Both the position numbers and the translations under genes were made by a program. DNA of 64,000 nucleotides from a virus. Of this stretch, positions 4,553 to 56,057 are shown piece by piece. Below the pieces are notes generated by a model, which ran no database searches, was not told the origin of the DNA, and was given only the letters and a program-made list of their open reading frames with translations. The stretch spans positions 1 through 64,000 of IMG/VR virus record IMGVR_UViG_3300040801_004793. The stretch is one strand, 5' to 3'. Positions within the stretch are counted from its first letter, which is position 1, and every line of letters starts with the position of its first letter.

Positions 4553-4556
4553 CTTC

Positions 4557-5294: not shown

Positions 5295-5296
5295 TT

Positions 5297-6055: not shown

Positions 6056-6057
6056 AA

Positions 6058-6849
6058 ATGACTAATGATGATATTCCCAAAATGGTACTAATTCCAGGGG
6101 GAAGCTTCACTATGGGCTCTAATAAAAATTCATACGATACTCCTGAAGAAGAGCCTGCTCATAAAGTCAACGTTTCTTCTTTTCTTCTAGGAAAATATCT
6201 AGTTACTCAAGATCAGTACCTTAGCGTAATGCAATCTAACCCCGCTCATTTTAAAATAAATGGGGGCAATCGGCCAGTTGAAAACGTTTCTTGGGAAGAA
6301 GCTAAGATCTTCTGCTTGAATTTATCAGAAAAAACGGGTCAATCATTTCGTCTACCTAGCGAAGCAGAATGGGAATACGCCTGTCGTGCTGGTACCACAA
6401 CCCCCTTTTATTTTGGAAATACAATAAATACCGATCAAGTTAACTTTGACGGTTATTATCCTTTCTTTGATTCCTCTATTAACGAAACCCTCATACACTA
6501 TGGGGGAGAAAGACGGCTAGAAACTACCCCCGTAGGTTCTTTTCCCCCTAATTCTTTTGGTCTATATGATATGCACGGGAATTTATGGGAATGGTGTGAT
6601 GATGTTTGGCATCCAAATTATAAGGGTGCGCCTATAAAAGGAGGTCCTTGGCTTACTAAAGGTATTACAAATAAAAAGGTGGTACGAGGGGGCGGTTGGG
6701 ATTCATTGGGTATGGAATGTAGATCAGCCTCTCGTCGATATGCTCCTTGTACGTATAAGGGTCTTAATGTCGGAATTCGAGTAGCTTGTAGTCTGGACCC
6801 GCTCACTAGCTTTTTAAACCCGATCGCTTTCCAGTCTCTAGGATTTTAA
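6058..6849 (+). CDS. FGE-sulfatase/CLec-fold protein, copy 3
   Basis: Same motifs; tail AFQSLGF. Confidence 0.95.
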   Translation: MTNDDIPKMVLIPGGSFTMGSNKNSYDTPEEEPAHKVNVSSFLLGKYLVTQDQYLSVMQSNPAHFKINGGNRPVENVSWEEAKIFCLNLSEKTGQSFRLPSEAEWEYACRAGTTTPFYFGNTINTDQVNFDGYYPFFDSSINETLIHYGGERRLETTPVGSFPPNSFGLYDMHGNLWEWCDDVWHPNYKGAPIKGGPWLTKGITNKKVVRGGGWDSLGMECRSASRRYAPCTYKGLNVGIRVACSLDPLTSFLNPIAFQSLGF

Positions 6850-6851
6850 TA

Positions 6852-7592
6852 ATGACTAAGTTACCAAGAATGGCACTAATTCCAGGGGGATCTTTTATGA
6901 TGGGGTCTTCCAAAAATGAAGGAGACCCTAATTCAACCGAGTGTCCTCAACGTGAGGTAACCGTGCCGCAGTTCTGGATGGGGAAATATCCAGTCACCCA
7001 AGCCCAATATGAAGCGGTGATGGGTAAGAATCCCTCCAGGTTTTCTAAGAATGGAGCCAACCGTCCAGTAGAAAGAGTGGGTTGGAATAATGCTATGGCA
7101 TTTTGTCAGAAGCTCTCCCAACAAACTGGGCAGAAATATCGCCTCCCTAGCGAAGCTGAATGGGAATATGCTTGTAGAGCGGGAACGGAGACCCCATTTC
7201 ATTTTGGGGAGACTATCACCACTGATCTTGCTAACTATTGCGGCCTTTCAGAGTATAACGGCGGTCCCACGGGAAAGTTTTCAAAGGCCACGACCGAAGT
7301 AGGTAGTTTTCCAGCCAATGCCTTTGGGCTGTACGACATGCACGGCAATGTATGGGAGTGGTGTCTAGACCGTTGGCACGAGAGCTACTATGGAGCACCA
7401 ACTGACGGCAGTGCTTGGACAACAGGAGGTGATCGCTCCAGACGAATTCTGCGGGGCGGTTCGTGGTACGAATATCCTAAGCATTGCCGCTCGGCCTCAA
7501 GGGGGTCTACCTTGGAAGACACAGCTCTTAATAGCGTAGGTTTTCGGGTTGTTTGTCATTACACACCCCCTTTTAGCAGTTTTGGTTTTTAA
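6852..7592 (+). CDS. FGE-sulfatase/CLec-fold protein, copy 4
   Basis: Same motifs; tail PFSSFGF. Confidence 0.95.
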   Translation: MTKLPRMALIPGGSFMMGSSKNEGDPNSTECPQREVTVPQFWMGKYPVTQAQYEAVMGKNPSRFSKNGANRPVERVGWNNAMAFCQKLSQQTGQKYRLPSEAEWEYACRAGTETPFHFGETITTDLANYCGLSEYNGGPTGKFSKATTEVGSFPANAFGLYDMHGNVWEWCLDRWHESYYGAPTDGSAWTTGGDRSRRILRGGSWYEYPKHCRSASRGSTLEDTALNSVGFRVVCHYTPPFSSFGF

Positions 7593-7594
7593 AA

Positions 7595-8368
7595 ATGGTT
7601 ACTAAGGATATTCCTGAAATGGTATTTATCCCCGGAGGGTCTTTTATGATGGGGTCTTCCACGGATGAAAGAAAAAGTAGTTCAAGTGAGAGACCTCGAC
7701 ATAAAGTTACGATACCTGATTTTTACATGGGACGGTATCCAGTAACCCAAGCACAGTATAAATTTATAATGGGTAAAATTCCTTCTCCTTTTTCCCGTCA
7801 AGGAGATAATAAACCCGTAGACTTAGTAAGTTGGAATGAAGCCGTAGCATTTTGCCAAAAGCTCTCAGCGGTCACGTCTAAAACGTATAGATTACCTTCT
7901 GAAGCCGAGTGGGAATATGCCTGTAGAGCAGGAACTACTACGCCTTTTTACTTTGGGAAAACTATTACCACTGACCTTGCTAACTATTGCGGTTGCTCGA
8001 CCTATGGACAAGTGCCAAATAGTCTTTACCGAAAGGAAACTACTACAGTAGGCAGCTTTCCGCCCAATGCCTTTGGTCTTTACGACATGCATGGCAACGT
8101 ATGGGAGTGGTGCCAGGATGTGTGGCACGACAGTTATCAGGGAGCCCCCAGCGATGGCCGTGCTTGGACAGAAGGCAACACCTTCACGCAAGAGAGGCGA
8201 GTTTTACGTGGAGGCTCCTGGAGCGACATTCCGTGGTATTGCCGGTCCGCGTGTCGTTCCAGCAACTATGCCGACAACCGCTACATCCTCAATGGTTTTA
8301 GAGTAGCTTGTGATGACCCCAGCACTCTTCTGTTGCCCTTTACTCCCTTTATCTCCTTTGGATTCTAA
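7595..8368 (+). CDS. FGE-sulfatase/CLec-fold protein, copy 5 (DGR-type variable region)
   Basis: Same motifs; tail PFISFGF. Confidence 0.95.
   Translation: MVTKDIPEMVFIPGGSFMMGSSTDERKSSSSERPRHKVTIPDFYMGRYPVTQAQYKFIMGKIPSPFSRQGDNKPVDLVSWNEAVAFCQKLSAVTSKTYRLPSEAEWEYACRAGTTTPFYFGKTITTDLANYCGCSTYGQVPNSLYRKETTTVGSFPPNAFGLYDMHGNVWEWCQDVWHDSYQGAPSDGRAWTEGNTFTQERRVLRGGSWSDIPWYCRSACRSSNYADNRYILNGFRVACDDPSTLLLPFTPFISFGF
8213..8299 (+). repeat. DGR variable-region-like repeat (copy 5)
   Basis: 87-nt GGCTCCTGG...TGCCGGTCCGC...GGTTTT; differs from sister repeats mainly at codon positions 1-2 of NNC/NNT codons. Confidence 0.75.
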
Positions 8369-8419
8369 AAATATCCGCTTCTCGCTGAGATCTTGTAATA
8401 CTTGTTTTTGAGAAAAAAA

Positions 8420-9193
8420 ATGAAGCGCTTTACAGAACAACTTCATGGGTATATTGTGCCCCTGGAAATGATCCATATCCCCGCTGGCATCTTTCTCATG
8501 GGCTCTCCTGAAAAGGAAAAAGACCGATTTGGAGATGAAGGCCCTCAGCATGAGGTCATCGTCCCCACTTTTTTCATGGGGCGCTACCCCATCACCCAGG
8601 CCCAATATGAAGCGGTGATGGGCACCACCCCCGCCACGAAATATGAGGCTGATCGCTTTGTCGCTCTCAATAAACCCGTTGTGGGGGTGAGCTGGAAGGA
8701 TGCCGTTACCTTTTGCACCGCCCTGGCCCAGCGCACGGGTCGCCCCTATCGCTTACCTTCTGAAGCAGAATGGGAATATGCTTGCCGCGCTGGGACTACA
8801 ACGCCTTTCTACTTTGGGAGCACCCTCACTACCGAGGTTGCCAATTACGACGGTAACTACACCTATGGTGAGGGTCCGACAGGTGAATTTCGCAACGCCC
8901 TCACCTCTGTAGACCACTTTGAGGTTGCTAACTCCTTTGGCCTCTCAGACCTGCACGGCAATATCTATGAGTGGTGTCAGGATACGTGGCACGACAACTA
9001 TGAGGGGGCACCGACCGATGGCTCGGCTTGGGTAGACGGGGGCTATTCAGACCAAAAGGTTATCCGTGGTGGCTCCTGGAACAACATTCCGAGGGATTGC
9101 CGGTCCGCGTATCGCCTCAACCTCAACGCCGACAACCGCTACAACGACTTCGGTTTTCGTGTTTGTTGTGCTGCCCCTAGCAATCTTTTGTAG
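8420..9193 (+). CDS. FGE-sulfatase/CLec-fold protein, copy 6 (most host-like, lacks FGF tail)
   Basis: ATG at 8420; FTEQL..VPLEMIHIPAG N-terminus; GC-richer; ends AAPSNLL-TAG. Confidence 0.93.
   Translation: MKRFTEQLHGYIVPLEMIHIPAGIFLMGSPEKEKDRFGDEGPQHEVIVPTFFMGRYPITQAQYEAVMGTTPATKYEADRFVALNKPVVGVSWKDAVTFCTALAQRTGRPYRLPSEAEWEYACRAGTTTPFYFGSTLTTEVANYDGNYTYGEGPTGEFRNALTSVDHFEVANSFGLSDLHGNIYEWCQDTWHDNYEGAPTDGSAWVDGGYSDQKVIRGGSWNNIPRDCRSAYRLNLNADNRYNDFGFRVCCAAPSNLL
9071..9157 (+). repeat. DGR variable-region-like repeat (copy 6)
   Basis: 87 nt, retains six AAC codons. Confidence 0.75.
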
Positions 9194-9219
9194 TCCTTCG
9201 TCTCCTTTGAATTCTAAAA

Positions 9220-9966
9220 ATGATTAGTAAATGTATTCCTGAAATGGTATTTATTCCAGGGGGATCTTTTATGATGGGAGTCTCCACAAATGAAAGAGGG
9301 GAAAGTGAGTCTGAGAAACCTCAACATAAAGTTACTGTACCCGCATTTTACATGGGACGATATCCGGTCACCCAAGCCCAGTATAAATTCATAATGGGTG
9401 AAAACCCTTCTCATTTTTCTCATCAAGGAGATAATAAGCCTGTAGAAAGAGTGAGTTGGAATCAAGCCACGGCATTTTGTCAGAGGCTCTCAGAGGTCAC
9501 GTCTAAAAAATATAGATTACCCTCCGAAGCGGAATGGGAATATGCTTGTCGGGGCGGGACGACAACCCCCTTTCACTTTGGGGAAACTATCACCTCTGAC
9601 CTTGCCAACTATGACGGTAGCGTGATCTACGGAGAAGAGCCACGAAGTACTTACCGAAAGGAAACCACTGAGGTCGGTAGTTTTCCACCCAATGGTTGGG
9701 GCCTTTATGACATGCATGGTAACGTGTGGGAATGGTGTGATGATGAATGGCATGGTAATTACCAGGGAGCTCCCATAAACGGATCACCTTGGTTAGAAGA
9801 CGATGATAGAGGTAGAAGAGTTCTACGTGGCGGCTCCTGGGACTACGGCCCGAGGCTTTGCCGGTCCGCGTTTCGCTACTTCGTCTATGCCGACCAAAGC
9901 TGGGACGATACCGGTTTTAGAGTAGCCTGTGATTACAAACTTCCTTTTCAAGCTTTTGGATTCTAA
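9220..9966 (+). CDS. FGE-sulfatase/CLec-fold protein, copy 7
   Basis: Same motifs; tail PFQAFGF. Confidence 0.95.
   Translation: MISKCIPEMVFIPGGSFMMGVSTNERGESESEKPQHKVTVPAFYMGRYPVTQAQYKFIMGENPSHFSHQGDNKPVERVSWNQATAFCQRLSEVTSKKYRLPSEAEWEYACRGGTTTPFHFGETITSDLANYDGSVIYGEEPRSTYRKETTEVGSFPPNGWGLYDMHGNVWEWCDDEWHGNYQGAPINGSPWLEDDDRGRRVLRGGSWDYGPRLCRSAFRYFVYADQSWDDTGFRVACDYKLPFQAFGF
9832..9918 (+). repeat. DGR variable-region-like repeat (copy 7)
   Basis: 87 nt, aligns without gaps to the other three. Confidence 0.7.
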
Positions 9967-9968
9967 AA

Positions 9969-10715
9969 ATGACTAATAATGATATTCCTGAAATGGTATT
10001 TATTCCAGGAGGATCTTTTATGATGGGGTCTTCCAAAAATGAAAGAGACGGAAGTTCGTCTGAGAAACCTCAACATAAAGTTACTGTACCCGCATTTTAT
10101 ATGGGACAGAGCCCGGTCACCCAGAACCAGTATCAAGCAGTGATGGGTAAAAACCCTTCTTATTTTTCTCATCGGGGAGATAATAAACCCGTAGAATTAG
10201 TAAGTTGGAACGACGCCATAACATTTTGCCGAAAGCTCTCCCAACAGACAGGTCGGAAATATCGCTTACCTTCTGAAGCAGAATGGGAGTACGCTTGCCG
10301 AGCTGGAACCACAACACCTTTTTATTTTGGGGAAAGCATCACCACTGACCTTGCCAACTGTGCCGGTATCCCAGGCAATGGCGTCATGGCGGCAAAGGAT
10401 AATTACAGACAGAAAACCACTGAGGTCGGTAGTTTTCCACCCAATGCCTTTGGTCTCTACGATATGCACGGAAATGTATGGGAATGGTGTGAGGATGTGT
10501 GGCACAGCAACTATGAGGGGGCTCCTACAGACGGTAGTGCCTGGACAGAAGGCAACAACCAAGAGCGAGTTTTACGTGGAGGCTCCTGGAACGACATTAC
10601 GGGGATTTGCCGGTCCGCATTTCGCTACAGCAGCTATGCCGTCTGCCGCGATGTCGTCGGCGGTTTTAGAGTAGCTTGTGATTACACACCTCCTTTTAGC
10701 AATTTTGGATTCTAA
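9969..10715 (+). CDS. FGE-sulfatase/CLec-fold protein, copy 8
   Basis: Same motifs; tail PFSNFGF. Confidence 0.95.
   Translation: MTNNDIPEMVFIPGGSFMMGSSKNERDGSSSEKPQHKVTVPAFYMGQSPVTQNQYQAVMGKNPSYFSHRGDNKPVELVSWNDAITFCRKLSQQTGRKYRLPSEAEWEYACRAGTTTPFYFGESITTDLANCAGIPGNGVMAAKDNYRQKTTEVGSFPPNAFGLYDMHGNVWEWCEDVWHSNYEGAPTDGSAWTEGNNQERVLRGGSWNDITGICRSAFRYSSYAVCRDVVGGFRVACDYTPPFSNFGF
10581..10667 (+). repeat. DGR variable-region-like repeat (copy 8)
   Basis: 87 nt, aligns without gaps to the other three. Confidence 0.75.
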
Positions 10716-10720
10716 AAATA

Positions 10721-11428
10721 ATGACTTCTCTGATTGAGGTAGTAACAATTCCTTCAGGTACTTTCCTAGGTAAAGACTCTAATCAAATTTACGTACCTGG
10801 TTTTTATCTTTCTAAATATCTGATAACACGAAAAATCTGGAATTACGTAACACAGTTACCAGAAGTAAACACTCCTTTAGTTTCGACTGTAGATATTCCC
10901 GAGCTTTACCAGAATCCCGTACGAGGGGTGTCTTACTGGGATGTTTTAGAGTTTTGTAATCGAATCTCCAGTAAGACAGATCAGTATAGATTACCTACTG
11001 AAATTGAATGGGAATATGCTTGTAGAGCTGGCACTACAACAGCTTTCTACTTTGGAGGTATAGGAGACGCAAGTATAGAAAAATTTAATCATCTCGATTT
11101 GAAACTCTCTGCTACCTCTCACTTTCAAAGCCATAATAGTATTCATCCACATCAAGTTAATCGTGTTAATTATTACCCTCCAAATCCCTGGGGTTTACAT
11201 GATATGCATGGTAATTTGTGGGAGTGGTGTAAAAATAGTAAAGAAAATAAAACGGAACAAGAATCAGATAACTGGCCTGCAATTCTCAAAGGGGGATCTT
11301 GGAGAAGTCCCGCAAGGTCTTGTCAATCCAGTTCAATAATTTCTTTCCCTAAAAATTACAGGAACACTCACGTTGGATTTAGAGTCGTTCTAGAGAGACC
11401 CACTCAATTTGGTGCTTTTGGATTTTAA
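10721..11428 (+). CDS. divergent FGE-sulfatase/CLec-fold protein, copy 9
   Basis: RLPTEIEWEYACRAG, NPWGLHDMHGNLWEW, KGGSW...GFRV; tail QFGAFGF. Confidence 0.9.
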   Translation: MTSLIEVVTIPSGTFLGKDSNQIYVPGFYLSKYLITRKIWNYVTQLPEVNTPLVSTVDIPELYQNPVRGVSYWDVLEFCNRISSKTDQYRLPTEIEWEYACRAGTTTAFYFGGIGDASIEKFNHLDLKLSATSHFQSHNSIHPHQVNRVNYYPPNPWGLHDMHGNLWEWCKNSKENKTEQESDNWPAILKGGSWRSPARSCQSSSIISFPKNYRNTHVGFRVVLERPTQFGAFGF

Positions 11429-29336: not shown

Positions 29337-29627
29337 ATGGACATTCATACAAAGTTGAGTAGTGGGTATTACGAACCTAAAGTGAATTTTTTACCTTACG
29401 TTAAGTATCGTAACCCCCAAGAATTCTATAGTCAGCTTTACTTTGAAGAAAAACAAAGGTTATTTAAGGAGTTTAAAAAAGACGCTCTAGCACACGCTAA
29501 TTTTACAGACCCAGCTTTAAGTGAGAGAGCTTGGGCGTATGTAATAAGTCTTAAACATACATCTTTATTTGTCGATATAATTAACAGTTTAGAGCAGTTA
29601 AATTATGTAATCAAAGGAGATGAGTAA
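29337..29627 (+). CDS. tandem paralog family protein 1
   Basis: Y.PK...FKKDAL...RAW...YVIKGDE. Confidence 0.75.
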   Translation: MDIHTKLSSGYYEPKVNFLPYVKYRNPQEFYSQLYFEEKQRLFKEFKKDALAHANFTDPALSERAWAYVISLKHTSLFVDIINSLEQLNYVIKGDE

Positions 29628-29920
29628 TGGACATTTATGCAAAGATTGACAGCGGTTGTTATGAGCCTAAAAGTAGATTTATACCCTATAGCAAAGCTGG
29701 TACGCTAGAGGCGTATGAAAATCAACCGTACTTGAAAGAAGAGGAAAAGTTACTTCAAAATTTCAAAAAAGATGCCATTCTTGAAGCTGGGTTAGACCCT
29801 GATAATTCTATGACAGGTAGAGCATGGGATATGGCATGGGAGCTAGGTCATAGTAACGGCTATTCTGGAGTTTACGGATATCTGCGTGATATCGCTTATG
29901 TGATTAATGGAGACACGTAA
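29627..29920 (+). CDS. tandem paralog family protein 2
   Basis: FKKDA...RAWDMAWELGHSNGY...YVINGD. Confidence 0.75.
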   Translation: MDIYAKIDSGCYEPKSRFIPYSKAGTLEAYENQPYLKEEEKLLQNFKKDAILEAGLDPDNSMTGRAWDMAWELGHSNGYSGVYGYLRDIAYVINGDT

Positions 29921-30213
29921 TGGATTTCAATAGAAAGTTAAATACCAGATATTATGTGCCTAAAACTGCCTGCATACCTGGCTATAAGTGTAGTAGTTCT
30001 AAAGAATATCTAGAACAGCCGTATTTTAAAGAAAAACAAAGGTTACTTCAAGAGTTCAAAAAAGACGCTCTTCACGCAGCCGGTTTAGACCCGGCTGATC
30101 CTATGACAGAAAGAGCTTACACTTTGGCCTGGCGATTAGGGCATGATTACGGTCATTCAGCTATCTATAACTATCTGTGGGATATCGCTTATGTAATTAA
30201 AGGAGATGAGTAA
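29920..30213 (+). CDS. tandem paralog family protein 3
   Basis: FKKDAL...RAYTLAWRLGH...YVIKGDE. Confidence 0.75.
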   Translation: MDFNRKLNTRYYVPKTACIPGYKCSSSKEYLEQPYFKEKQRLLQEFKKDALHAAGLDPADPMTERAYTLAWRLGHDYGHSAIYNYLWDIAYVIKGDE

Positions 30214-30509
30214 TGGGAGTTCTAGAAAATCTCAAAAACGGCAAATACAGTCTAGAGGTAAAAATGCCATATCTCCCTTTTTCTAGTAGCATAGAAGAAA
30301 GGCAGCAATGGACTAAGGATATGGATGATTACTATGAAGCTAGGCGTAATCATGCCCTCGTAATTAAGACCGATTTCATGGAAGAATTCGGGGACACTAA
30401 AACCCATAGAGGGCTATGGGATTATCTCTATAGCCATCATGGTTGCCTAAATGTTGAAGTTCTGTATAAAGAGTTTAAGCAAGCTTTAGATTTCATTAAT
30501 AATGCTTAG
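30213..30509 (+). CDS. hypothetical protein (possibly a distant fourth paralog)
   Basis: 98 aa, TAATG-coupled to the previous gene. Confidence 0.6.
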   Translation: MGVLENLKNGKYSLEVKMPYLPFSSSIEERQQWTKDMDDYYEARRNHALVIKTDFMEEFGDTKTHRGLWDYLYSHHGCLNVEVLYKEFKQALDFINNA

Positions 30510-30746: not shown

Positions 30747-31361
30747 ATGTTGGATTTATCAAATGCTACTCTTGATTTAAAAGAAAGAATCTCTCGGTAC
30801 AAGCGAGAAAATTCTCCCGTAGTTTTTGAGGAGCCACAGTATTTATTTCTATCAGGTTTAGTAGCTAGAAATAGCTCTCTAAAGTATTATTTAAATTCTT
30901 TTGGAGAGGACCCACTAGAAGTAAATTTACACAAATTAATGTGTGACCTTTTAAAGGATTTGAAAACTTTAAATCCCGGTTTTTTCCTAGGCCACACCTC
31001 TTCTAACCACATTGAAATTTGTTATCATCCAAAAACAACACAGTATCCAATTCAAAATTCTGGTTTTACTTCTATAGCTGTTTCCCGAGCTGTTAATTTT
31101 ATATCAAACTACTATAAAAACCCCATGGTTCTTTTTACGGCTTATCAAGTGCCAGGGTTAGAGGTACAAAATGTCTTTAAATACTCCCAATTATCTTGGG
31201 AAGCAAGGCGTAATAGAATTCTAGGGGAAATGTATTTAGGCATTCCATCTTCAGACCATAGCCTATCGCATAAAGAAATTCTATCTAGAGTTTTATCTTT
31301 GGGAAGTTTTAAGCTAGAAGATTTACCAGTTACAATGTTAAAAGGGCTTTATATTAATTAG
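30747..31361 (+). CDS. hypothetical protein
   Basis: 204-aa ORF. Confidence 0.65.
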   Translation: MLDLSNATLDLKERISRYKRENSPVVFEEPQYLFLSGLVARNSSLKYYLNSFGEDPLEVNLHKLMCDLLKDLKTLNPGFFLGHTSSNHIEICYHPKTTQYPIQNSGFTSIAVSRAVNFISNYYKNPMVLFTAYQVPGLEVQNVFKYSQLSWEARRNRILGEMYLGIPSSDHSLSHKEILSRVLSLGSFKLEDLPVTMLKGLYIN

Positions 31362-31373: not shown

Positions 31374-32039
31374 ATGTCAGCTTCTAGAAGTTTACAGGAA
31401 ATTTTAAGTCTTATCAGTTCTAATTCAGATTTTCGCGATCCTGAAGAAGTTAAGCCGAAAGTTTTTAAAAGTATTTTCCCTTCTTTTCTTCAAGAGGGAG
31501 AACACACCAGCAATTACGTGTCTAATATTGATTGGTTAAAAAGTCGAAACGCAATCTTTGTCGGCGTTCCAGACTTTGAGACTAAGAATAAGGTTTTTTC
31601 TACAAATAGTTTCTTAGTTTGTATGCTTCTTTTTGTTTCAGGAGAAAAGCTTAATACTTTTCAAAAAATACTGTCTGAAACAAAGTTTTTCTCTCCAATT
31701 TACGAGGCCTGCCAAGAAAAACCGGCTTATGCCCAGGCAGTTCTTAAAACAGAAGAGCTTGCTAGCTATGAGGATTCCATCAGAGTAATAGAAGCTTTGA
31801 TTGGTCATTTAGAACAACAGGGTTTTTTAGTTAGGAGATTTAAACTAGGCATTTCCAATTCTGCCTATCAATTTAAAACTCTTGACATGGAAGACACCTT
31901 TCTCGATTTTAATTTACCGCCAGCAGATAATGGTTCCTTAGCTCTGATAGATAAACCCCTATCTTATTACATAGGGGAGTGGCTAGGAAAAACCTTGTCC
32001 ATTGACTCTACGGAGTCCACTGGCAAACAGTCTTTGTAG
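31374..32039 (+). CDS. hypothetical protein
   Basis: 221-aa ORF with AAGGAG RBS. Confidence 0.65.
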   Translation: MSASRSLQEILSLISSNSDFRDPEEVKPKVFKSIFPSFLQEGEHTSNYVSNIDWLKSRNAIFVGVPDFETKNKVFSTNSFLVCMLLFVSGEKLNTFQKILSETKFFSPIYEACQEKPAYAQAVLKTEELASYEDSIRVIEALIGHLEQQGFLVRRFKLGISNSAYQFKTLDMEDTFLDFNLPPADNGSLALIDKPLSYYIGEWLGKTLSIDSTESTGKQSL

Positions 32040-32122
32040 AGAGGCAATTTAGTTTCTCTACTTAGGGGGCCTATCCTCTTTAGGCCTCGTTCGTGTACAC
32101 GTCTAAAACACAAAAACACATC

Positions 32123-32542
32123 ATGTCTAACCAAAACAACAACTCCGCTGTCCAGAACCTCGCTGAAGCTCTGGCTAACCTGATCTCTACTACCGCTCCG
32201 GCTAACGGCAATGTTGTGCCTACTGTTGTTCCGCCCACGCCCAGCTACGCGGTGAGCCAAACTGCGGCGGTGGCTCCTGTAGCAACTGTTGTGTTGCAAG
32301 GCACCGTTAAGCAGCCATCTCTGAGGACGTTCCAGAGCTGGCAGCATCTAGGCTACACCTTGGGCCGTATCAAGGACGAGACCTTCGGTACGGAAATTCG
32401 CGCCGACGAAGCTTCCTTAAGCATCAACGGCCAAGCTCCTCAGCCTCTAAGCCTGACGAGCCTCCTGCCCGAAGCCGTTAACGCGGAGGGTATCACCTCT
32501 ATCCGCCTAACCTACAGTGTCACCTCTGGCACCAACGGTTAG
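32123..32542 (+). CDS. putative ubiquitin-like (beta-grasp) modifier with low-complexity N-terminal extension
   Basis: Ends in strand + SGTNG-stop (C-terminal Gly, compare the GTKG end of PRTRC protein C); lies directly before JAB, E2 and E1 genes. Confidence 0.65.
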   Translation: MSNQNNNSAVQNLAEALANLISTTAPANGNVVPTVVPPTPSYAVSQTAAVAPVATVVLQGTVKQPSLRTFQSWQHLGYTLGRIKDETFGTEIRADEASLSINGQAPQPLSLTSLLPEAVNAEGITSIRLTYSVTSGTNG

Positions 32543-32609
32543 TAGTTCATAGGGCTGGGGCTCCCCTCTAAGAGCCCCACTGTTTAGGTTACGTCAAAAT
32601 TTGACAGTC

Positions 32610-32642
32610 AGGAGGGGCCTCAAAACCCCTCCTTTTCTTTTT
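32610..32642 (+). terminator. rho-independent terminator between Ubl and JAB genes
   Basis: AGGAGGGG-CCTCAAAA-CCCCTCCT followed by TTTCTTTTT. Confidence 0.65.
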
Positions 32643-32670
32643 GTCAACAACACTACTCACTAAACTGATA

Positions 32671-34038
32671 ATGACACAGCAAGAAGAAGCAAAAATCACT
32701 CCGAAGATTACATCCTCTGGATCTTTCATTCGAAGAGGCGATGAAATTCAACCCCTGATTCAGTACTTTGGGGGCCGTTACTTTTGTCCAATGCAGCATC
32801 CTGTATTTCTGGGCTACACGGAGATGACGGACCAGGATCGCCACATGACTAATGAAGAGTTTTTGACTTTTCAAGATCTCAACTTCTGGAATCTTCAACC
32901 AAGTCCAGTAGATCCTTCCAAAGTAATTACTTCTACGGGAACTTTTCAAAAAGTCCCTAAAGAAGATTGGATCAAGACGATCAAATTATTTGCTCACTTT
33001 TGTAGAAATGATGGATTCCCTAATGAGTTAGAAGTGGGCTTAATTTTGGCTCTTCACAATGAGAGTCAGACCTTAAGGCTTCTTGTACCCAAACAGTCTG
33101 TGACAAAAGCCAGTGTTAACTGGACAATTTCCGACATTAAATCTGATACCCAAGTAATGGACTTGGATGGAAACCTCATCGTAATGTCGGATTATACTCC
33201 CGTAGGTGTTTTTCATAGCCATAACACTTTCGGGGCCTTCCCTTCTTCAGTAGATAACACTTGTGAGGTAAAAGACACTGCGGGAAAGATTATTCCCACG
33301 GGTTTCCATATGATTCTGGGAAACTTCAAAAACTACGAAAACTACGAGTTTGATGAACCCACTTTTGATACTTACAGTAGCTTCTCTCATCTGGGAGTTC
33401 GCCACCAAGTAACAAGTGAAAAAACCTTTGAGTTCTTTGTGAGTGATGACTTTTCAGTGGAGGAGTACCAACAGAATACCTTTAGCACAAACATTCTAAC
33501 AATCATCACCAGGTCAACTGTTTGGTCGGGCAAAGTTTATACAGGTAAGTCTTATGCGACGAGGCCTTACTCGGGATCTGCCAATTACGTAAACTACCGC
33601 CCGTTTAGAAATCCTGAGCATGAGCAAGCGTACAACAGGATTAGTAAAAAGCACAGAAAAGCTTCTGCTGCTAATCAAGCCTGGAGAACTTCTACAGTAC
33701 CCGCTCTTATCAGGACGGATGCAAAAGAAGCTCTGATTGAGTACGCTATTAGTTGCATGTATGACATCTACGCCACGCTCGTAGATGACTTGAGTGCCGA
33801 CCCTGTGGACTTAATGAAAGAGTTCGAAGCTTGGCATCAGGAAAGTCTTGGTTCAAACAATTCTCTAGAAATGCTCTCGTCTGAGATGTATACTCCTTTA
33901 CCATCTGAGATGTATACCCCTTTGGCAAGTGATGACCCTCTATCTAATGAAGACTACTGGACATCTTCTATTGATGGAGGAGGTCTGGTAGACAACTCAG
34001 CGGATGTAGACAATCCTTTTTACTATCGAGGAAACTAA
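32671..34038 (+). CDS. JAB/MPN-domain metallopeptidase (PRTRC protein A-like)
   Basis: Upstream Glu (NELEV), VPKQ.V..ASV, HSHNTFGAFPSSVD (HxH..S..D) motif. Confidence 0.8.
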   Translation: MTQQEEAKITPKITSSGSFIRRGDEIQPLIQYFGGRYFCPMQHPVFLGYTEMTDQDRHMTNEEFLTFQDLNFWNLQPSPVDPSKVITSTGTFQKVPKEDWIKTIKLFAHFCRNDGFPNELEVGLILALHNESQTLRLLVPKQSVTKASVNWTISDIKSDTQVMDLDGNLIVMSDYTPVGVFHSHNTFGAFPSSVDNTCEVKDTAGKIIPTGFHMILGNFKNYENYEFDEPTFDTYSSFSHLGVRHQVTSEKTFEFFVSDDFSVEEYQQNTFSTNILTIITRSTVWSGKVYTGKSYATRPYSGSANYVNYRPFRNPEHEQAYNRISKKHRKASAANQAWRTSTVPALIRTDAKEALIEYAISCMYDIYATLVDDLSADPVDLMKEFEAWHQESLGSNNSLEMLSSEMYTPLPSEMYTPLASDDPLSNEDYWTSSIDGGGLVDNSADVDNPFYYRGN

Positions 34039-34039
34039 A

Positions 34040-35065
34040 ATGGCGATTGATGACAGTTACACAGTAACGGTTAACCCAAGACCAGACACAATTAAAGGCC
34101 GATTTTGTTTAAGTCACGCACCTACAGCTATTGGTGTACTTCACAGTATTGGGGAACAAGGAACATTCAGTCTTACTGGAGCCTTTATGCCTAGCTATAT
34201 TAGGTATATGGCTTTCCGAGGAATGATTGCTACAGATCTGTTTTGGCAGTTTTGTACTTCTTGTCCTTTGTACCATCAACAAGCTTGTTCTGGAGGAGCC
34301 CCTTTAATTGCTCGGGGAAGAAACGCCCGTCGCAGGTCGGCCAATTTTGTAAATGCAGAAGGCCGTACTCAAACCTGGGACTACGTTGAAGATAATTGCA
34401 AGATGAATTACACGGCCACAGAGCGGGCGGGAAGAACTAATATTACTATTCCCGACCACTTTGCAGCAATTAACGATGGTAGATTTGCGTGGTTTGCAGC
34501 GGAGTATATTCGAAACGAATTTCGATTTACTCCGCTTCGTATGTTTAATACGTACGAATCGGGAAATGTTTGTTTGGGAGAGAACCGTCTTCGGAGCAAC
34601 GCTTCTCTTCCAGAAGTCTATGAAACGTTTCTTAACGGAACAGTCAACAACGATCTCAGACCACTGGCTGCATCTCGGCACTCAAAGACGACTTTAGAGT
34701 GGTGTCAGACCTTTAATTTAGAAGAGCTCAAAGAGGAGGATGACTATCCAGAGAGAACTATAACACAGTTACCTTGCCTTTCCACGACAAACTCAAGAAG
34801 ATTATTTCACGTTTTGCCGCCAAATGTGGCTTTTGTGACTTATCTTCGACTTTCTTCTCCTAACGAATACGTAGACCTATCTCCAGAAGAAAAACAACCT
34901 CGTATTTACCGTGAAAGGTTGTATGTAGCAATTGCAGCTATGTACGATCCCCTCGGAGAAGACCGAGAAGCATATACCTATGTATATGTTCACAACCCCA
35001 CCAAAATAGTGGAAGATGCAGAGCTTCTTAACCGGGTTCAATACGAAGCTGGTAGATCATCATAA
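34040..35065 (+). CDS. prokaryotic E2-like ubiquitin-conjugating protein (PRTRC protein B / Prok-E2 type)
   Basis: PLRMFNTYESGNVCLG motif with putative catalytic Cys, then F...N.DL; N-terminal CxxC cluster. Confidence 0.7.
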   Translation: MAIDDSYTVTVNPRPDTIKGRFCLSHAPTAIGVLHSIGEQGTFSLTGAFMPSYIRYMAFRGMIATDLFWQFCTSCPLYHQQACSGGAPLIARGRNARRRSANFVNAEGRTQTWDYVEDNCKMNYTATERAGRTNITIPDHFAAINDGRFAWFAAEYIRNEFRFTPLRMFNTYESGNVCLGENRLRSNASLPEVYETFLNGTVNNDLRPLAASRHSKTTLEWCQTFNLEELKEEDDYPERTITQLPCLSTTNSRRLFHVLPPNVAFVTYLRLSSPNEYVDLSPEEKQPRIYRERLYVAIAAMYDPLGEDREAYTYVYVHNPTKIVEDAELLNRVQYEAGRSS

Positions 35066-35115
35066 ACCGTCGCCACTCTGAAACCAGTCCATCTAAAACA
35101 TAGCAGAGGTCAAGC

Positions 35116-36054
35116 ATGAAAACTTTCGTTCCTGATGAGATCATCCAAATTGGATGCGGAGGCACAGGCTCCCGTTTAGTAGAAGAACTAAAATTTTGGG
35201 TTCGTGGAAATCTAGTTGATCTGCCCAGGTCTTTTTATTACACCTTGGTAGATTTTGATACTGTCGGAGATAGTAATCTAAATCGACAGCTCTTTTATCC
35301 ATGGGACCTGGGTAAGTCAAAAGCTCACGTCTTTGTGGAGCGTTTACGGAATTTGATTAAAATCAGGCAAATTCCAGAACCAATTAACCAAGATACTGTC
35401 AACTTCATCTTTGACGAGGAGCGGCTAAATAAAAAACTAGTGGTTATTTGCTCGGCGGATAACCCTCTAGTTGTTAAACAGGTCATGTTAAAGTTGCTTG
35501 CCGATGCAAGAAACGACTACCTGTGGATCTTTACTGGGGCCAGTCTAGTTAATCACACCTTACATACTGGGGAGTATCTGGAAACGGGGGTTGGACAGGC
35601 TTATGCGTATGGTGTAGTAAACCAAACACCCCTGTTTCCTGTTCCCCCGAATGAGGCCCTGCTAGACATTATGCGGGCTGTGGGTTATGGTCCCACTTCT
35701 ACGGGTAACAACTGTGGGGTAACAACCTCAGGAGGAGCCCAAACGCCCCTCATGAATCACAGTTGTGTAAATGCTGTGTTACAAATTTTCAATGCTCTCT
35801 TTAAGCATGGTAAGTTTATTCCAGCCATCTACTTTGTGGATGGAGTAAGCACCACCTATGCCGAGGCTATTGATGTGGCTACGTTGATGGGTACAGCATC
35901 ACTAGAGCAGCTTTCTGCTTTAGACTCAATTAGTCGGACTCTTTCTTCTCAATCGGCGTCTGAAAATGATGACTATGACTATGAGGACGAGGACGAAGAG
36001 GATGAGGATGAGGAAGAGGAGTACGATGATTACTTCGACGATGATGAGCACTAA
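35116..36054 (+). CDS. ThiF/E1-like adenylating enzyme
   Basis: IGCGGTGS, DFDTV..SNLNRQ, GKSKA, CSADN, C...Q...N; long acidic tail. Confidence 0.9.
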   Translation: MKTFVPDEIIQIGCGGTGSRLVEELKFWVRGNLVDLPRSFYYTLVDFDTVGDSNLNRQLFYPWDLGKSKAHVFVERLRNLIKIRQIPEPINQDTVNFIFDEERLNKKLVVICSADNPLVVKQVMLKLLADARNDYLWIFTGASLVNHTLHTGEYLETGVGQAYAYGVVNQTPLFPVPPNEALLDIMRAVGYGPTSTGNNCGVTTSGGAQTPLMNHSCVNAVLQIFNALFKHGKFIPAIYFVDGVSTTYAEAIDVATLMGTASLEQLSALDSISRTLSSQSASENDDYDYEDEDEEDEDEEEEYDDYFDDDEH

Positions 36055-36125
36055 CTAGTGTTGACTTCTAGATGGTAGGGGTAGTAAAATACCCCTACTC
36101 GCCTGTAAACCTAAAACAAAAACAA

Positions 36126-36449
36126 ATGAAACTACCACCTGATCTACTGCGAGTGTTACACGAGAATCGGTCCTCTTTACCCCCATCGGTTTTAGAAATG
36201 ATACCGACTCTCTTTGTTAAGGAAGACTTTATTGATCTGGAGGAAGATTCTAGAGAAAAAGTACTAGCACTAATTCGGGATATTTGCTTTATTCTTTTGG
36301 AAGAATTTCCCGAGTCCGATGAGGATAATCCTCAGATGGACAAATTAGCGTCCTTAGAAGATAAGCATCTAATTGCCCTTCTTAAACATTCAATGAAAGC
36401 TGACAGTTTAAAGCTTACAAAGCGAGGCAAAAGAGCTTCCGAAGATTAA
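36126..36449 (+). CDS. hypothetical protein
   Basis: Likely start MKLPP within ORF 36072..36449. Confidence 0.55.
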   Translation: MKLPPDLLRVLHENRSSLPPSVLEMIPTLFVKEDFIDLEEDSREKVLALIRDICFILLEEFPESDEDNPQMDKLASLEDKHLIALLKHSMKADSLKLTKRGKRASED

Positions 36450-37264: not shown

Positions 37265-39001
37265 ATGGATAAGAATACTGGTATACGGGTAGTAACCTCC
37301 TGTTCTAACCCTCTAACATTAACCTACCTAGCTGCTCATAGGGATTATTCCGAATGTTTATCGGTTATGGATTCTCCTCCCTCTTATTTACCTAAAACAG
37401 AGGAAGAAGCGGGGGAAAAAATTCTTAGAATGCTTCTAAAAAAGAGGCACTTTGGTCCGTTAGAGCACCCTCACGCTACAGTAGAAGTCGTAGGCTTTCC
37501 CCACAGCGTTGCAGTTCAGGCCAGAACTCATAGAATTGCCTTTTGCCTGGATGAAGATACCCGTATTCAATTTTCTCGCAAGCCTCAAAAAAGAGGGAGA
37601 AGAGTACAAAATTATTCTGTTCCATTAAAAGATCTAGCTAATCTATGGTTTAACGGAATCAAAGATCAACGAGATCCCTACTTTGGAAGGCACTATGTTA
37701 GGGATAAAAGACTTCGGTATTTTAATCCCTCCACTAAAAAGATTGAATACACCAACATTACTAATATTTATAATACGGGAGTTAAAACTCTATATAAAGT
37801 TTCTACTGAAGGAAATAATTTCATTCAAGGTTCTGAAGACCATAAAATTCTAACAACCAACTCTGATCTATCTTCTTTTGAGTGGAAAGAGATTAAAAAT
37901 CTTACAACAGAAGATTATGCAATTCGCATGTCTTATAAACCTAATAATCCACCAGTAAAAGAAGATATTACTTTTACTGAAGAACAGTTGGAATCTGAGG
38001 AGTGGCGTCCAGTAGTTGGTTTTGAAAGATACTACCAGGTTAGTAACTTAGGTCGTTTGCGAAGTTTATTTGATTCGGAGCCTAAACTAAAATCTGTTGT
38101 CACAGGCCCAACGGGTTATAAATATGCTTCTCTTCATAGAAAAGAAATCATCTACTTACATACAGAAGTATTAAAAGCTTTTGTAGGACCTCCGCCGGAA
38201 GGAAAAAATAAGGCTTTACATAAAGACGACAATCGTAAGAATAACTGTCTTTCTAACTTATATTGGGGAGATAGCTCTGACAACCAAGCAGATCTAACGA
38301 GAAATGCCGGAGGCAGATCTTTTCAACCCGTACCGGCTAAAATTATTTCTATTGAATGTGTAGGCGAAAAACAGACCTATGACATTGAAGTAAAAAGTAA
38401 ATATAGAAACTTTTTTGCTAATAATCTCGTAGTTCATAATAGCTTTGATGTACAAAGTCAAAGGTATACGGGAAAAAGAGTAGTTGATTTAATAAATATT
38501 TTTCTAGAGTTATTTCCCGATAGAGATCCCAATGGTGAAGGTAGAAGGCTAATAATTTCAAAACTTCTACAGAACGAAGAACTCTCTGAAAAAGAAAGAC
38601 ACTTTGTAGATCAGTTACAAAAAGTTTTTTACGTTAGACCTGCTGGAAAATATCATAATAGGCAAGGGAAAAGATACGAAGTTAGCGAAGAAGAAGTCTT
38701 AAAAAGATACTTCTTTAACAAAATTTCATCCTCTCTTGACTACTATGATCTTGTTGTTACTAAGGGTGTGGCTGAAGAAGATGCCAGGGATGATCTGCCT
38801 CAAGGAATAAGGCAAGGTTTTTTTATGACCTTTAACCTTAGATCTTTGATGCATTTTCTTGATATGAGGTATAAAGCCGATGCCCAGCCGGAAATTATCT
38901 ACTTGGGAGAACTTTTAATAGAATTTTTTAAGGTCTGGGCAGGGCCGGTAGCAGAGTTCTATATCAAAAATAGGGCAAATAAAAACAATGTTGCACCCTA
39001 A
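37265..39001 (+). CDS. thyX: flavin-dependent thymidylate synthase interrupted by an intein
   Basis: HFGPLEH, QARTHR...SFDVQSQRY, EDAR..LP, NLRSLMHFLDMR...AQPEI. Confidence 0.93.
   Translation: MDKNTGIRVVTSCSNPLTLTYLAAHRDYSECLSVMDSPPSYLPKTEEEAGEKILRMLLKKRHFGPLEHPHATVEVVGFPHSVAVQARTHRIAFCLDEDTRIQFSRKPQKRGRRVQNYSVPLKDLANLWFNGIKDQRDPYFGRHYVRDKRLRYFNPSTKKIEYTNITNIYNTGVKTLYKVSTEGNNFIQGSEDHKILTTNSDLSSFEWKEIKNLTTEDYAIRMSYKPNNPPVKEDITFTEEQLESEEWRPVVGFERYYQVSNLGRLRSLFDSEPKLKSVVTGPTGYKYASLHRKEIIYLHTEVLKAFVGPPPEGKNKALHKDDNRKNNCLSNLYWGDSSDNQADLTRNAGGRSFQPVPAKIISIECVGEKQTYDIEVKSKYRNFFANNLVVHNSFDVQSQRYTGKRVVDLINIFLELFPDRDPNGEGRRLIISKLLQNEELSEKERHFVDQLQKVFYVRPAGKYHNRQGKRYEVSEEEVLKRYFFNKISSSLDYYDLVVTKGVAEEDARDDLPQGIRQGFFMTFNLRSLMHFLDMRYKADAQPEIIYLGELLIEFFKVWAGPVAEFYIKNRANKNNVAP
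37544..38440 (+). mobile_element. 299-aa intein with NUMOD4/HNH homing endonuclease
   Basis: Starts CLDEDT; block B SEDHKI; block F TYDIEV; ends VVHN before Ser; internal EEWRPVVGFERYYQVSNLGR and HKDDNRKNNCLSNL. Confidence 0.92.
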
Positions 39002-54089: not shown

Positions 54090-56057
54090 ATGAATTTTAA
54101 AGACTACTTTCATGAATCTATAGGCCTTGCTGTATGTAACTCTTCTTTTGAGTACTTGTGGCACTCTGCTTCGTGGCCTCAATTATTTGGTAAAAAAGAA
54201 AAATCCTACATAGGAGAATCTCATTTTAAATTTTTAGAAACCGTTCCTTATGCTTGGGAAAAAGATTACAATCAAGTATTGAGTACTTCTGGTTATTCCG
54301 TAACTTATAAACCTGAATGGTTTAATAACCAGGCTCTTCTTCATTCTGTTTCAGTGTTAGAAAATAATCTAATTCTGATTCTTTGCTTAAACGTTTCAGA
54401 AGTTACAAGGTTTAAAGAATCTCTCTATAAATTTCAAGATTGCAGTATGACAGGTAAAGCAATCTTTAGAAAAGAAGGAGAAAATTTTAGAATAGTCTAC
54501 TGGAATAAATATGCCGCTACTAAAAATCCGGGAATAAATCTTGAAGGCTCTATCTTATCTAATACTTTTTTTTCGAATGCTAGGTTAGAGTTGGAAGAAG
54601 AAAAAACTTTTATAGATTTTTGTTTCGAAGTTTTAGAAACTCAAACTTCTGATCTTACAGAAATAAAGTTAGAGGCCTTAGAAAAGTATTATCTTATTAC
54701 GCTCTTTCCCATAAGTGAAACAGAATTGGGTTGTGAATGGTTCGATATAAGTTCTAAAATTGAATTTTTTCAAAAAACACAATTTGAATTAATACATGAT
54801 AACTTAACAGGCCTATTTAATAGAAAACTTTTAGGCAGTCAATCAATAGAGTTTGACTACATTCTCTTTTTAGACTTAGATAATTTTAAAAGTGTCAATG
54901 ATTTTTATACCCACTCTGTTGGAGATAAACTTTTACAAATAGTAGCTCAGAGAATTTCTCAAGTTGCTAAAAACCAAGTTGCAGTTAGAGTTTCTGGTGA
55001 TGAGTTTTTCATTCTAGTAAAGGGTAAAACCGAGAAAGAGGTTTTTGAGCTTGCTGTTGAAATCTGTAGTGTCCTAAAACAACCTTATCTAATTCAAAGC
55101 TTTATTATTAAAAATGTGTCTTGTTCTTGTGGTATAGCTAAGTTTTCAAAGGATGTAGATACTACGGTAAGAAAAGCGGATCTTGCTATGTACCAAAGTA
55201 AGGCTTTAGGTAAGTCTGACAAAGAGGCTTCTGGTATTCCTATTTGGTACGAAGAGAGTATGGGAGACTCCCATACTAGACAACATAAACTTTTAAAACT
55301 TCTTTATCAAGCAATTCAAAAAAATGCTTTTGATATAGTTTTACAACCTTTTGTAAATCTTCAAGAATTAAACGAAGAAAATCCTAAAAAAACACCGAAG
55401 GTAGGATACGAAGTTTTAGTTCGTTGGAATACTCCTTCTGGACCTATTCCTCCGTCTGAGTTTATTCCTATAGCTGAAGATCACGGCTATATTACAGCAA
55501 TCACTCTGTTAGTGTTATCTCAAGCCTGTAAAGCCTGTAAAGAAATAAATAGAGTCTCTAAATACCCTCTTTATCTATCTGTAAACGTATCAGGTCAAGA
55601 CTTGTCTAATAAAAGACTCAAAGATAGCATTGATATGTTGCTAGAAGAGTCGGGATTAGACTATAATCTAATTAAGTTTGAGATTACTGAGTCTGTTATT
55701 CCTTCCATACAAGAGGCAGAAAATACAGTTCAGTATTTAAATTCAGAGGGTCTCAAAAGTTTGTTAGATGATTTTGGAACTAAGGGAAGCTCTCTAACTC
55801 TTATGTTTAGTCTTTCTGTAGAAGGAATCAAAATTGATAGAGATTTCATTATTAACTGGACTGATTCCGTACAACATATTATTGGGCTAGGACACAGTAA
55901 AGGACTGTCTGTTGTTTGTGAAGGAGTAGAGAGTTTAGAAATTGCACAAAAGTTAAAACGCGCCAAAGCCGATATTGGACAAGGCTTTTTATTCGGAATG
56001 CCTTTATCTCTGGAAGATACTATTGAGGAATTACTCGAAAATGAAGAAAACAATTAA
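54090..56057 (+). CDS. PAS-like/GGDEF/EAL protein (diguanylate cyclase/phosphodiesterase)
   Basis: HDNLTGLFNR, DLDNFKSVND, RVSGDEF, EVLVRW, FEITES, DDFGT, KIDR, EGVE, QGF. Confidence 0.93.
   Translation: MNFKDYFHESIGLAVCNSSFEYLWHSASWPQLFGKKEKSYIGESHFKFLETVPYAWEKDYNQVLSTSGYSVTYKPEWFNNQALLHSVSVLENNLILILCLNVSEVTRFKESLYKFQDCSMTGKAIFRKEGENFRIVYWNKYAATKNPGINLEGSILSNTFFSNARLELEEEKTFIDFCFEVLETQTSDLTEIKLEALEKYYLITLFPISETELGCEWFDISSKIEFFQKTQFELIHDNLTGLFNRKLLGSQSIEFDYILFLDLDNFKSVNDFYTHSVGDKLLQIVAQRISQVAKNQVAVRVSGDEFFILVKGKTEKEVFELAVEICSVLKQPYLIQSFIIKNVSCSCGIAKFSKDVDTTVRKADLAMYQSKALGKSDKEASGIPIWYEESMGDSHTRQHKLLKLLYQAIQKNAFDIVLQPFVNLQELNEENPKKTPKVGYEVLVRWNTPSGPIPPSEFIPIAEDHGYITAITLLVLSQACKACKEINRVSKYPLYLSVNVSGQDLSNKRLKDSIDMLLEESGLDYNLIKFEITESVIPSIQEAENTVQYLNSEGLKSLLDDFGTKGSSLTLMFSLSVEGIKIDRDFIINWTDSVQHIIGLGHSKGLSVVCEGVESLEIAQKLKRAKADIGQGFLFGMPLSLEDTIEELLENEENN

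Follow-up and report, generated by a model that had tools for sequence, protein, structure and literature searches.

Conjugation of ubiquitin-like proteins (Ubls) in bacteria has been characterized so far as a means of host defence against phages, as in the Bil system, in CBASS Cap2/Cap3 and, probably, in Bub. Cap2 of CBASS is said to be an E1-E2 fusion acting on the CD-NTase. A further set of genes goes under the name of PRTRC (i.e. ParB-Related, ThiF-Related Cassette) and is described by the NCBIfam models TIGR03734-03738. Here, a cassette of four genes is analysed, which lies within positions 1 to 64,000 of the IMG/VR virus record IMGVR_UViG_3300040801_004793 (this whole stretch of 64,000 nucleotides being the window in the following) and encodes a small glycine-terminated protein, a JAB-type metallopeptidase (JAB), an E2-like protein and a ThiF-type E1 adenylating enzyme. 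On balance, the four genes probably form a phage-encoded Ubl conjugation module, which would belong to the PRTRC lineage as a divergent branch without ParB; what we infer in this proposal are the chemical steps, the identity of the modifier and its targets.

The PRTRC-type operon was predicted in 2006 (PMC1779556, in the portion of the article available), and we take PRTRC to be the operon type 6d of Iyer, Burroughs and Aravind 2006. That PRTRC cassettes are carried by phages is already on record: as far as the accessible parts of the two sources go, PRTRC protein B on a prophage is a mutational hotspot (bioRxiv 10.64898/2026.10.01.756045), and the PRTRC of a B. gladioli prophage is called a partitioning cassette (PMC13366799). 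A search of the literature found no experimental test of a phage-borne or other PRTRC system, but only annotation-level mentions. The rarity implied by the initial annotation of the window was thus overstated, PRTRC-type modules being present in 34 IMG/VR contigs, in 12 phage records and in the prophages of these two partly accessible papers. The window adds a sub-branch of its own, set apart by the order of its genes, by four additional invariant cysteines in the E2 (Cys4), by a longer modifier with a strongly codon-biased gene and by an acidic-tailed E1. The features of the cassette, in window coordinates, are the following:

32123..32542, + strand, candidate ubiquitin-like modifier, 139 amino acids (aa), ending SGTNG-stop
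32610..32643, + strand, terminator-like hairpin and T-run from a pattern scan, 8 pairs of which 6 are G-C
32671..34038, + strand, JAMM/JAB metallopeptidase, 455 aa from ATG (465 aa from TTG 32641)
33214..33255, + strand, JAMM metal-binding motif HSHNTFGAFPSSVD (HxHx7SxxD), with the upstream catalytic Glu at 33031-33033
34040..35065, + strand, E2-like protein, 341 aa, candidate catalytic Cys178
34253..34399, + strand, four invariant cysteines C72, C75, C83 and C120 (alignment and re-translation)
34544..34579, + strand, E2 active-site motif FNTYESGNVCLG (alignment and re-translation)
35116..36054, + strand, ThiF-type E1 adenylating enzyme, 312 aa (Pfam ThiF)
35152-35172, + strand, E1 P-loop GCGGTGS (re-translation)
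35713-35715, + strand, E1 candidate catalytic Cys200 (re-translation)
35926-36051, + strand, E1 acidic tail (sequence)

E1, JAB and E2-like components

The four genes are consecutive open reading frames (ORFs) of the + strand in the order Ubl-JAB-E2-E1, E2 and E1 being separate ORFs with an intergenic gap of 50 nt. The ORF listing and the re-translation of all quoted motifs at their coordinates confirmed what the initial annotation had read from this region, namely four consecutive genes with an SGTNG end, a JAB motif, an E2-like motif and E1 motifs. As to the components it had named, those of the E1 and the JAB are secure, a motif and a profile-profile link speak for the E2, and for the modifier the C-terminal Gly stands, while a beta-grasp fold did not emerge. 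The same four genes are found in the same order, with 30-52% protein identity, in the metagenome contig L036, and the four-gene synteny concerns both L036 and L037, the only relatives returned by a scan of metagenomes.

The E1 passes the threshold of the Pfam ThiF model (E 1.6e-9, 37.7 bits, threshold 28.1). Among the NCBIfam models, the top match is TIGR03736 (PRTRC_ThiF; E 4.3e-17, 62.2 bits), with the runner-up at 40 bits, in agreement with the PRTRC kinship that had been proposed at the outset; since this score lies under the cut-off of 144.75, the E1 is a relative, and not a member by the curated standard. The ThiF, MoeB and TcdA models also match it, with lower scores. Ten close relatives of the E1 are known, all of metagenomic origin, with 47-59% identity and on contigs of up to 141 kb. 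In an alignment of 35 sequences, made of 6 close relatives and 29 distinct phage PRTRC-like E1s, residues G13, G15, G16, G18, D46, D48, N54, R57, Q58, K69 and D115 are invariant (35/35) and Cys200 is kept in all sequences but one (34/35). On the basis of MoeB/ThiF structures, we take the invariant residues to serve ATP/Mg binding. Judging from these residues, the nucleotide-binding site is intact, and Cys200 is the candidate catalytic cysteine. A comparison of the E1 family profile with the PDB gave the UBA6 adenylation domain as the best match (E 6.8e-6), with SAE2 also among the best. PADLOC returned matches of the E1 to CBASS-type E1-E2 models, which are weak (20 bits or less) and limited to the E1 part. 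The protein ends with an acidic tail spanning the last ~40 residues, with a Pro-Phe terminus in 7 of the 11 family members.

Searches with the window proteins themselves remained empty in several collections: the E1 had no tblastn match among phage records, the E1 and the E2, each scanned singly against IMG/VR, gave no relatives, and a scan of genome contigs with the E1 alignment gave none either. The scan of IMG/VR with the E1 alignment, instead, led to 34 loci, the E1s of which are distant, with 27-46% identity in partial matches. A JAB is encoded in all 34, an E2 in 32, a ~68-aa ORF ending G[NT]KG in 27, and all three in 27; this ending occurs in only those 27 among the 2,245 ORFs of the loci. 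The loci also encode a ~300-aa protein and, upstream of the E2s, a ~85-aa protein ending Asp-Phe-Val/Ile. As an observation apart, the Pro-Phe-ended acidic tails of the window-type E1s and these ~85-aa proteins may both be docking peptides.

With one E1 of the IMG/VR type as the query, tblastn matched 12 of 50,697 phage records, i.e. Salmonella phage Arash, Vibrio phages D69, D181 and D148, the Bacillus jumbo phages vB_BceM_WH1, Edson and KLEB27-3, Burkholderia phage BgVeeders33, Acinetobacter phage ME3 (two), a bacteriophage from a human fecal sample and virus Rctr197k. In all four of the phage records examined, E2 and JAB genes lie immediately upstream of the E1 gene, and the annotation is mostly hypothetical. 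The PRTRC_C model was reached by just 1 of 15 phage Ubls (E 0.0012). In two of these phages the Ubls are encoded head-to-tail: Vibrio phage D69 (L041:1385-2176) has three tandem units, all with a TGTKG end, and five more residues past the third, and gp211 of Bacillus phage vB_BceM_WH1 (L042:3-686), a virion structural protein according to its annotation, contains at least four nearly identical ~57-aa units with an AGTKG end and, after them, a 15-residue tail. A processing peptidase is therefore called for, and such polyubiquitin-like precursors argue, as far as their sequences go, that this class really uses Gly-ended modifiers freed by a peptidase. The Arash products numbered Gp246-249 and Gp251 (these numbers being assumed to equal the GenBank tags) are among the 116 proteins detected by mass spectrometry coupled to liquid chromatography (LC-MS) in phage preparations, according to Table 2 in the available part of the Arash paper; the same list includes ribonucleotide reductase (RNR) and kinases, which shows expression more than virion residence. 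Also in Arash, the annotated frame of gp251c (L039:102-320) appears wrong, and an overlapping 66-aa ORF (107-307) is a Ubl ending TGTKG that scores 77.9 bits with the phage Ubl profile.

In the JAB, the core occupies approximately residues 94-250, and the protein continues with a long C-terminal extension ending with Gly and one residue. Of its two possible starts, ATG 32671 is more likely than TTG 32641, because the hairpin and T-run (32610-32643) overlap the latter. Pfam Prok-JAB matches residues 183-229 (E 9.1e-5, 22.8 bits), just short of the threshold of 25. When the JABs of the window and of L036 were aligned with 13 phage PRTRC_A-like proteins, residues E121, H182, S183, H184, S192 and D195, which include the full E...HxHx7SxxD motif, were invariant in all 15 sequences. 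In hhalign, the window JAB is homologous to these 13 phage JABs with 98.5% probability (E 1.7e-15, 181 columns), and the latter match PRTRC_A at E 1e-18 to 1e-21. The window JAB itself has no NCBIfam match at E <= 1, and thus no direct PRTRC_A match, so that its kinship to PRTRC_A is indirect, through the phage family. It gave no match in PADLOC, and its profile gave none in the PDB. Long C-terminal extensions are common to all of the aligned JABs, and a side observation is that JABs of both branches (window 33990-34038; L002-L036) have a near-invariant penultimate Gly, e.g. RGN, EGY, KGF or NGL.

The E2-like protein itself is without a match in Pfam, NCBIfam, PADLOC and PHROG. When PF14460 (Prok-E2_D) was searched over the whole genome, a single match was obtained, which falls within the E2 ORF (34349-34639) and lies below the cut-off (13 bits, E 0.0044, cut-off 25). 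HMMER, run exhaustively over 1.84 billion representatives, gave a family of 12 proteins, the window protein included, and 11 of them were aligned. The family invariants are N170, G175, C178 and G180 (FNTxxSGxxCxG). Asn170 is eight residues upstream of Cys178 in FNTYESGNVCLG, a spacing that we take to be that of HPN...C in UBC enzymes. Cysteines 72, 75, 83 and 120 are also invariant (11/11) and may form a zinc-binding insert; in 21 phage PRTRC_B-like E2s the catalytic Cys is the only invariant cysteine. The link with these 21 proteins was made by hhalign with 85.6% probability (E 5.6e-6) over only 78 columns, in which the Cys motif is aligned with FPNxYxxGxMCYG and the downstream NNDL with FNNDL. 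Furthermore, jackhmmer started from a phage protein scoring 25.6 bits with PF14460 recovered the window E2 at 59 bits, from a small set of locus ORFs and without the L036 E2 being listed. In the ESM atlas, 17 of 30 feature matches of the E2 (score 0.90) belong to a cluster set represented by a cluster with PF14460 in 39% of its members, which is a lead only towards Prok-E2_D. The E2 profile matched Parkin only in the PDB (E 1.7), and the atlas structure search with the E2 gave TM <= 0.28. Taken together with the structural results discussed below, the E2 assignment is probable, not proven.

The conservation of the catalytic residues also bears on a different use of the same genes, namely counter-defence, in which the JAB would strip host conjugates of the Bil or CBASS type with a decoy or regulator role left to the E1, the E2 and the small protein. 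Such a role would agree with the JAB being the partner most widely kept with the E1 (34/34 IMG/VR loci) and with the anti-phage function of the characterized bacterial relatives, in so far as the accessible portions of their descriptions reach. However, the E2 (32/34) and the Gly-ended Ubl (27/34) are retained nearly as often and the JAB has no PADLOC match, while the invariant catalytic residues of E1 and E2 argue for active conjugation and against decoys. Thus, counter-defence appears improbable as the function of the cassette.

The candidate modifier

The product of the first gene is made of an N-terminal helix (~8-24), an Ala/Pro/Val-rich linker (~25-52) and a C-terminal domain of ~87 aa ending SGTNG-stop. 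Its syntenic ortholog in L036 is 30% identical over 101 residues, with the Gly aligned and then followed by Leu-Gly, and the two proteins have in common the N-terminal segment, the Ala/Pro-rich linker and the C-terminal domain. A word-index search with the alignment of these two sequences returned one near-copy of the L036 protein. The window contains 62 ATG-ORFs of 110 aa or more on the + strand, the modifier ORF being the only one of them with a C-terminal Gly, and the tail SGTNG bears a resemblance, and only that, to the TG[NT]KG of the phage class.

The composition of the gene is also peculiar. The G+C content of window 32001-36000, where the cassette lies, is 44-46% vs 34-37% in the flanking 2-kb bins, and reaches 56.7% in the modifier gene alone. 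The G+C content at third codon positions (GC3) is 0.636 in the modifier gene, 0.35-0.43 in the three enzyme genes and 0.26-0.33 in the typical genes of the phage. In L036, a hairpin of different sequence with a T-run is found at the same position (-17.7 kcal/mol), and the GC3 excess is milder. Because of the strong codon bias and of the hairpin and T-run between the modifier and enzyme genes, the modifier is probably made in surplus relative to its enzymes, the hairpin being a possible attenuator that would bring such a surplus about.

A number of results weigh against conjugation by this cassette and have to be set beside those above. The AlphaFold2 model of the modifier, built from 3 sequences, is unusable (mean predicted local distance difference test, pLDDT, 44) and lacks the beta-grasp helix; hhalign gave 0.07% probability for the modifier against 15 phage PRTRC-type Ubls; the PRTRC_C model (TIGR03738) is blank in the genome at E <= 1; and the modifier matches no Pfam family, the single row being sub-threshold (RXLR, E 0.31). 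The hairpin is a pattern match, terminator-like sites in the region being 6 found vs 5.6 expected. The evidence for the E2 is weak throughout, owing not only to the narrow base of the two profile links but also to a poor AlphaFold2 model (11 sequences; mean pLDDT 53.5, predicted template modelling score 0.60), with which Foldseek found nothing at E <= 0.001 in the PDB and BFVD and for which the top row of a VIA-wide structural search was avidin (Z 4.1). Of the curated cut-offs, only that of Pfam ThiF is reached, PRTRC_ThiF, Prok-JAB and Prok-E2_D all being below theirs, and the conjugation activity of the cassette is itself read from sequence. As to structure prediction, which had been suggested as a check, a UBC fold of the protein encoded from 34040 is weakly supported, about 16 of the 50 VIA-wide rows listed being UBC-type E2 chains (Z 2.4-3.7), with Cap2 (7to3) and the BubCD-BubB-BubA complex (9eav) among the weak ones (Z 2.4-2.7), and a beta-grasp fold of the protein encoded from 32123 did not emerge. 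Prediction of a complex between E1 (1-262) and modifier (48-139), run with no control pairs, gave scores of 0.00, 0.44 and 0.00, which weigh in neither direction. The modifier also had no match in PADLOC, NCBIfam or PHROG, no usable match in the ESM atlas and no paralog in the genome.

These results raise the question of whether the trio of enzymes is real and yet has a beta-grasp modifier other than the 32123 product or none at all, its role being to activate another protein at the C-terminus, as in CBASS Cap2/Cap3 with the CD-NTase; the candidates would be a tag without a ubiquitin fold or the conserved Gly-X end of the JAB itself. Besides the lack of fold or profile evidence linking the 32123 product to Ubls, the near-invariant penultimate Gly in the JABs of both branches would fit such an arrangement, as would the fact that the PADLOC matches of the E1 are CBASS-type E1-E2 models. 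On the other hand, no large ORF on the + strand of the window other than 32123 terminates in Gly, its L036 ortholog retains both position and Gly, and its place in the cassette is the one taken in the wider phage class by a Gly-terminated Ubl with a similar tail (SGTNG/TG[NT]KG). We consider the activation of another protein in place of the 32123 product unlikely, although it carries more weight than the counter-defence role.

The phage genome and the setting of the cassette

The virus record, from which the window takes bases 1-64000, is 121,016 bp long, bears direct terminal repeats and is 100% complete according to CheckV, and the location of the cassette on a phage, as initially annotated, is borne out by this complete record. 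The genome encodes a DNA polymerase A, a class II RNR, a primase/helicase, a Mu-type portal, a dUTPase and an HNH-interrupted ThyX, along with 10 tRNA genes; tRNA, nucleotide-metabolism and replication genes surround the cassette. A profile search of the whole 121-kb genome found no integrase, and the phage is apparently non-integrating and apparently lytic. The ParB models TIGR03734 and Pfam ParB_N (PF02195) are likewise blank in the 121-kb genome (the former at E <= 1), and none of the sulfur-transfer genes rhodanese, MoaE and ThiG was found in it, so that the absence of ParB and sulfur-transfer genes, noted earlier for the neighbourhood, holds over the whole genome.

The sulfur-transfer genes are relevant to the possibility of a non-conjugating adenylation of the ThiS/MoaD-ThiF/MoeB type, in which the small protein would be a sulfur carrier, thiocarboxylated for cofactor or nucleic-acid modification. 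The lower-scoring matches of the E1 to ThiF, MoeB and TcdA and the tRNA and nucleotide-metabolism genes adjoining the cassette could be explained in this way, but the lack of rhodanese, MoaE and ThiG could not; moreover, an E2-like protein with an invariant Cys and a JAMM peptidase are conserved alongside the E1, the profile of which is closest to UBA6 and SAE2, and PRTRC_ThiF is at 62 bits vs 40 for the next model. There seems, thus, little chance that the cassette serves sulfur transfer.

The ParB and integrase searches bear, in turn, on the plasmid-like partitioning or maintenance suggested by the PRTRC name and annotation, and by the usage of the B. gladioli prophage paper (PMC13366799) in the part available. 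A 121-kb genome that has neither gene, and that combines terminal repeats and a lytic-type gene set with enzymes of the conjugation type, makes such a function very improbable. Indeed, the presence of a complete and conserved cassette on an apparently lytic phage with no ParB argues that the machinery serves infection and not plasmid partitioning.

The flanking genes at 30747-31361, 31374-32039 and 36072-36449 are syntenic in L036/L037, and the dUTPase and ThyX genes equally so. As candidate parts of the cassette, these flanking genes were rejected, hhalign giving <=0.2% against the ~300-aa and ~85-aa proteins that accompany the module in the phage PRTRC-like loci. The closest cultured phages, as judged from the polymerase, are Nodularia phages (~25% identity), and a cyanobacterial host is only a guess. 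One DNA run, from a microbial-mat metagenome, contains 0.34 of the words of the stretch, and no RNA run is listed. The sole match of a DNA search against phage records consists of 72 nt of Bacillus phage P59 inside the region coding for the E1 acidic tail, and is taken by us as low-complexity.

Other parts of the window may be mentioned as observations in their own right. A tandem array of ORFs of similar sizes (about 235-275 aa) occupies 2871-11428, and the two that were scanned (6058-6849 and 9220-9966) both match FGE-sulfatase (E 1e-53 to 1e-59). Four back-to-back ~97-aa ORFs are found at 29337-30509, of which the first three are clear paralogs, with stop and start codons adjacent or overlapping. 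The thymidylate synthase gene (37265-39001) is broken by an HNH-endonuclease insert, possibly an intein, and likewise in L037:1792-3519. Finally, 54090-56057 encodes a phage GGDEF-EAL protein (EAL E 4.6e-44; GGDEF E 1e-26).

Proposed function and comparison with known systems

In the proposed conjugation module, the E1 would adenylate the C-terminal Gly139 of the modifier using ATP, the modifier would probably be loaded on Cys200 of the E1 as a thioester and then be handed to Cys178 of the E2-like protein, and the latter would place it on lysines of target proteins. The JAMM peptidase could trim modifier precursors and/or strip conjugates. The cassette would act within the infected cell to the benefit of the phage, and not in plasmid-like partitioning. 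What is tagged can be suggested only tentatively: the phage might covalently modify proteins of its virion or of the host (e.g. factors of defence or of replication), and the Cys4 insert would be an E3-like substrate-recognition module, a more detailed scenario that, as a whole, we regard as unlikely. The only hints in its favour would come, by analogy, from distant relatives, namely the products detected by LC-MS in Arash and the virion-structural annotation in WH1. If true, tagging by the phage as an offensive or structural tool would mirror the Bil-type defence of the host. The interest of the cassette is limited by the previous record of phage-borne PRTRC, by the unproven fold of the modifier and by the uncultured state of the phage; related modules are, however, found in phages of Salmonella, Vibrio, Bacillus and Burkholderia that can be cultured, and polyubiquitin-like precursor genes in two of these, which makes the function of phage tagging directly testable.

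Among the characterized systems, Bil (BilABCD) is an anti-phage Ubl conjugation system that, in the accessible part of its description (preprint 10.1101/2023.09.04.556158), comprises the same four roles, i.e. a Ubl with an obligatory C-terminal Gly, an E1, an E2 and a JAB-type deubiquitinase. Short overhangs past the Gly are there reported for some BilA homologs, comparable to that of the modifier ortholog of L036. In contrast with the phage-borne cassette, Bil is host-encoded and defensive, and BilA has two ubiquitin-like domains, again according to that portion of the preprint. The comparison with Bil was made by component roles; the Ubl, JAB and E2 of the window have no match in PADLOC, a library of uncertain Bil content. 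CBASS Cap2/Cap3 resembles the cassette in that adenylation of the E1 type goes together with a carrier of the E2 type and a peptidase, whereas in the window E1 and E2 are separate genes and a small Gly-ended protein is added. The same combination is found in Bub, the enzymes of which, as far as the available text goes, use oxyester chemistry and lack catalytic cysteines (PMC11601596), while both candidate cysteines of the window families (E1 Cys200 and E2 Cys178) are conserved.

The likeness to PRTRC extends to the organization of the genes, the E1 (short and of the ThiF type), the E2-like protein, the JAB peptidase and the Ubl each having a gene of their own, to carriage by mobile elements, and to the profiles, the top model of the window E1 being PRTRC_ThiF and the JAB and E2 being linked by profiles to phage PRTRC_A and Prok-E2_D/PRTRC_B proteins, respectively. 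The differences are the lack of ParB in the window genome (TIGR03734 and PF02195 blank) and the fact that no curated PRTRC model reaches its cut-off with the window genes. The phage PRTRC-like modules (Arash gp246c-gp250c etc.) have, like the window, adjacent members of the E1, JAB and E2 superfamilies with a Gly-ended small protein nearby, and their E1s have the active-site residues and the Cys in common with the window E1. They differ in that the order is E2-JAB-E1 there and Ubl-JAB-E2-E1 in the window, in that their Ubl is a ~68-aa protein ending G[NT]KG whereas the window modifier has 139 aa, with an N-terminal helix and a linker, and in the Cys4 insert of the window E2 and the acidic tail of the window E1. 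Thus, by the curated cut-offs the cassette is not a member of PRTRC, and its sequences place it as a distant, reordered and ParB-less branch of the PRTRC-type modules.

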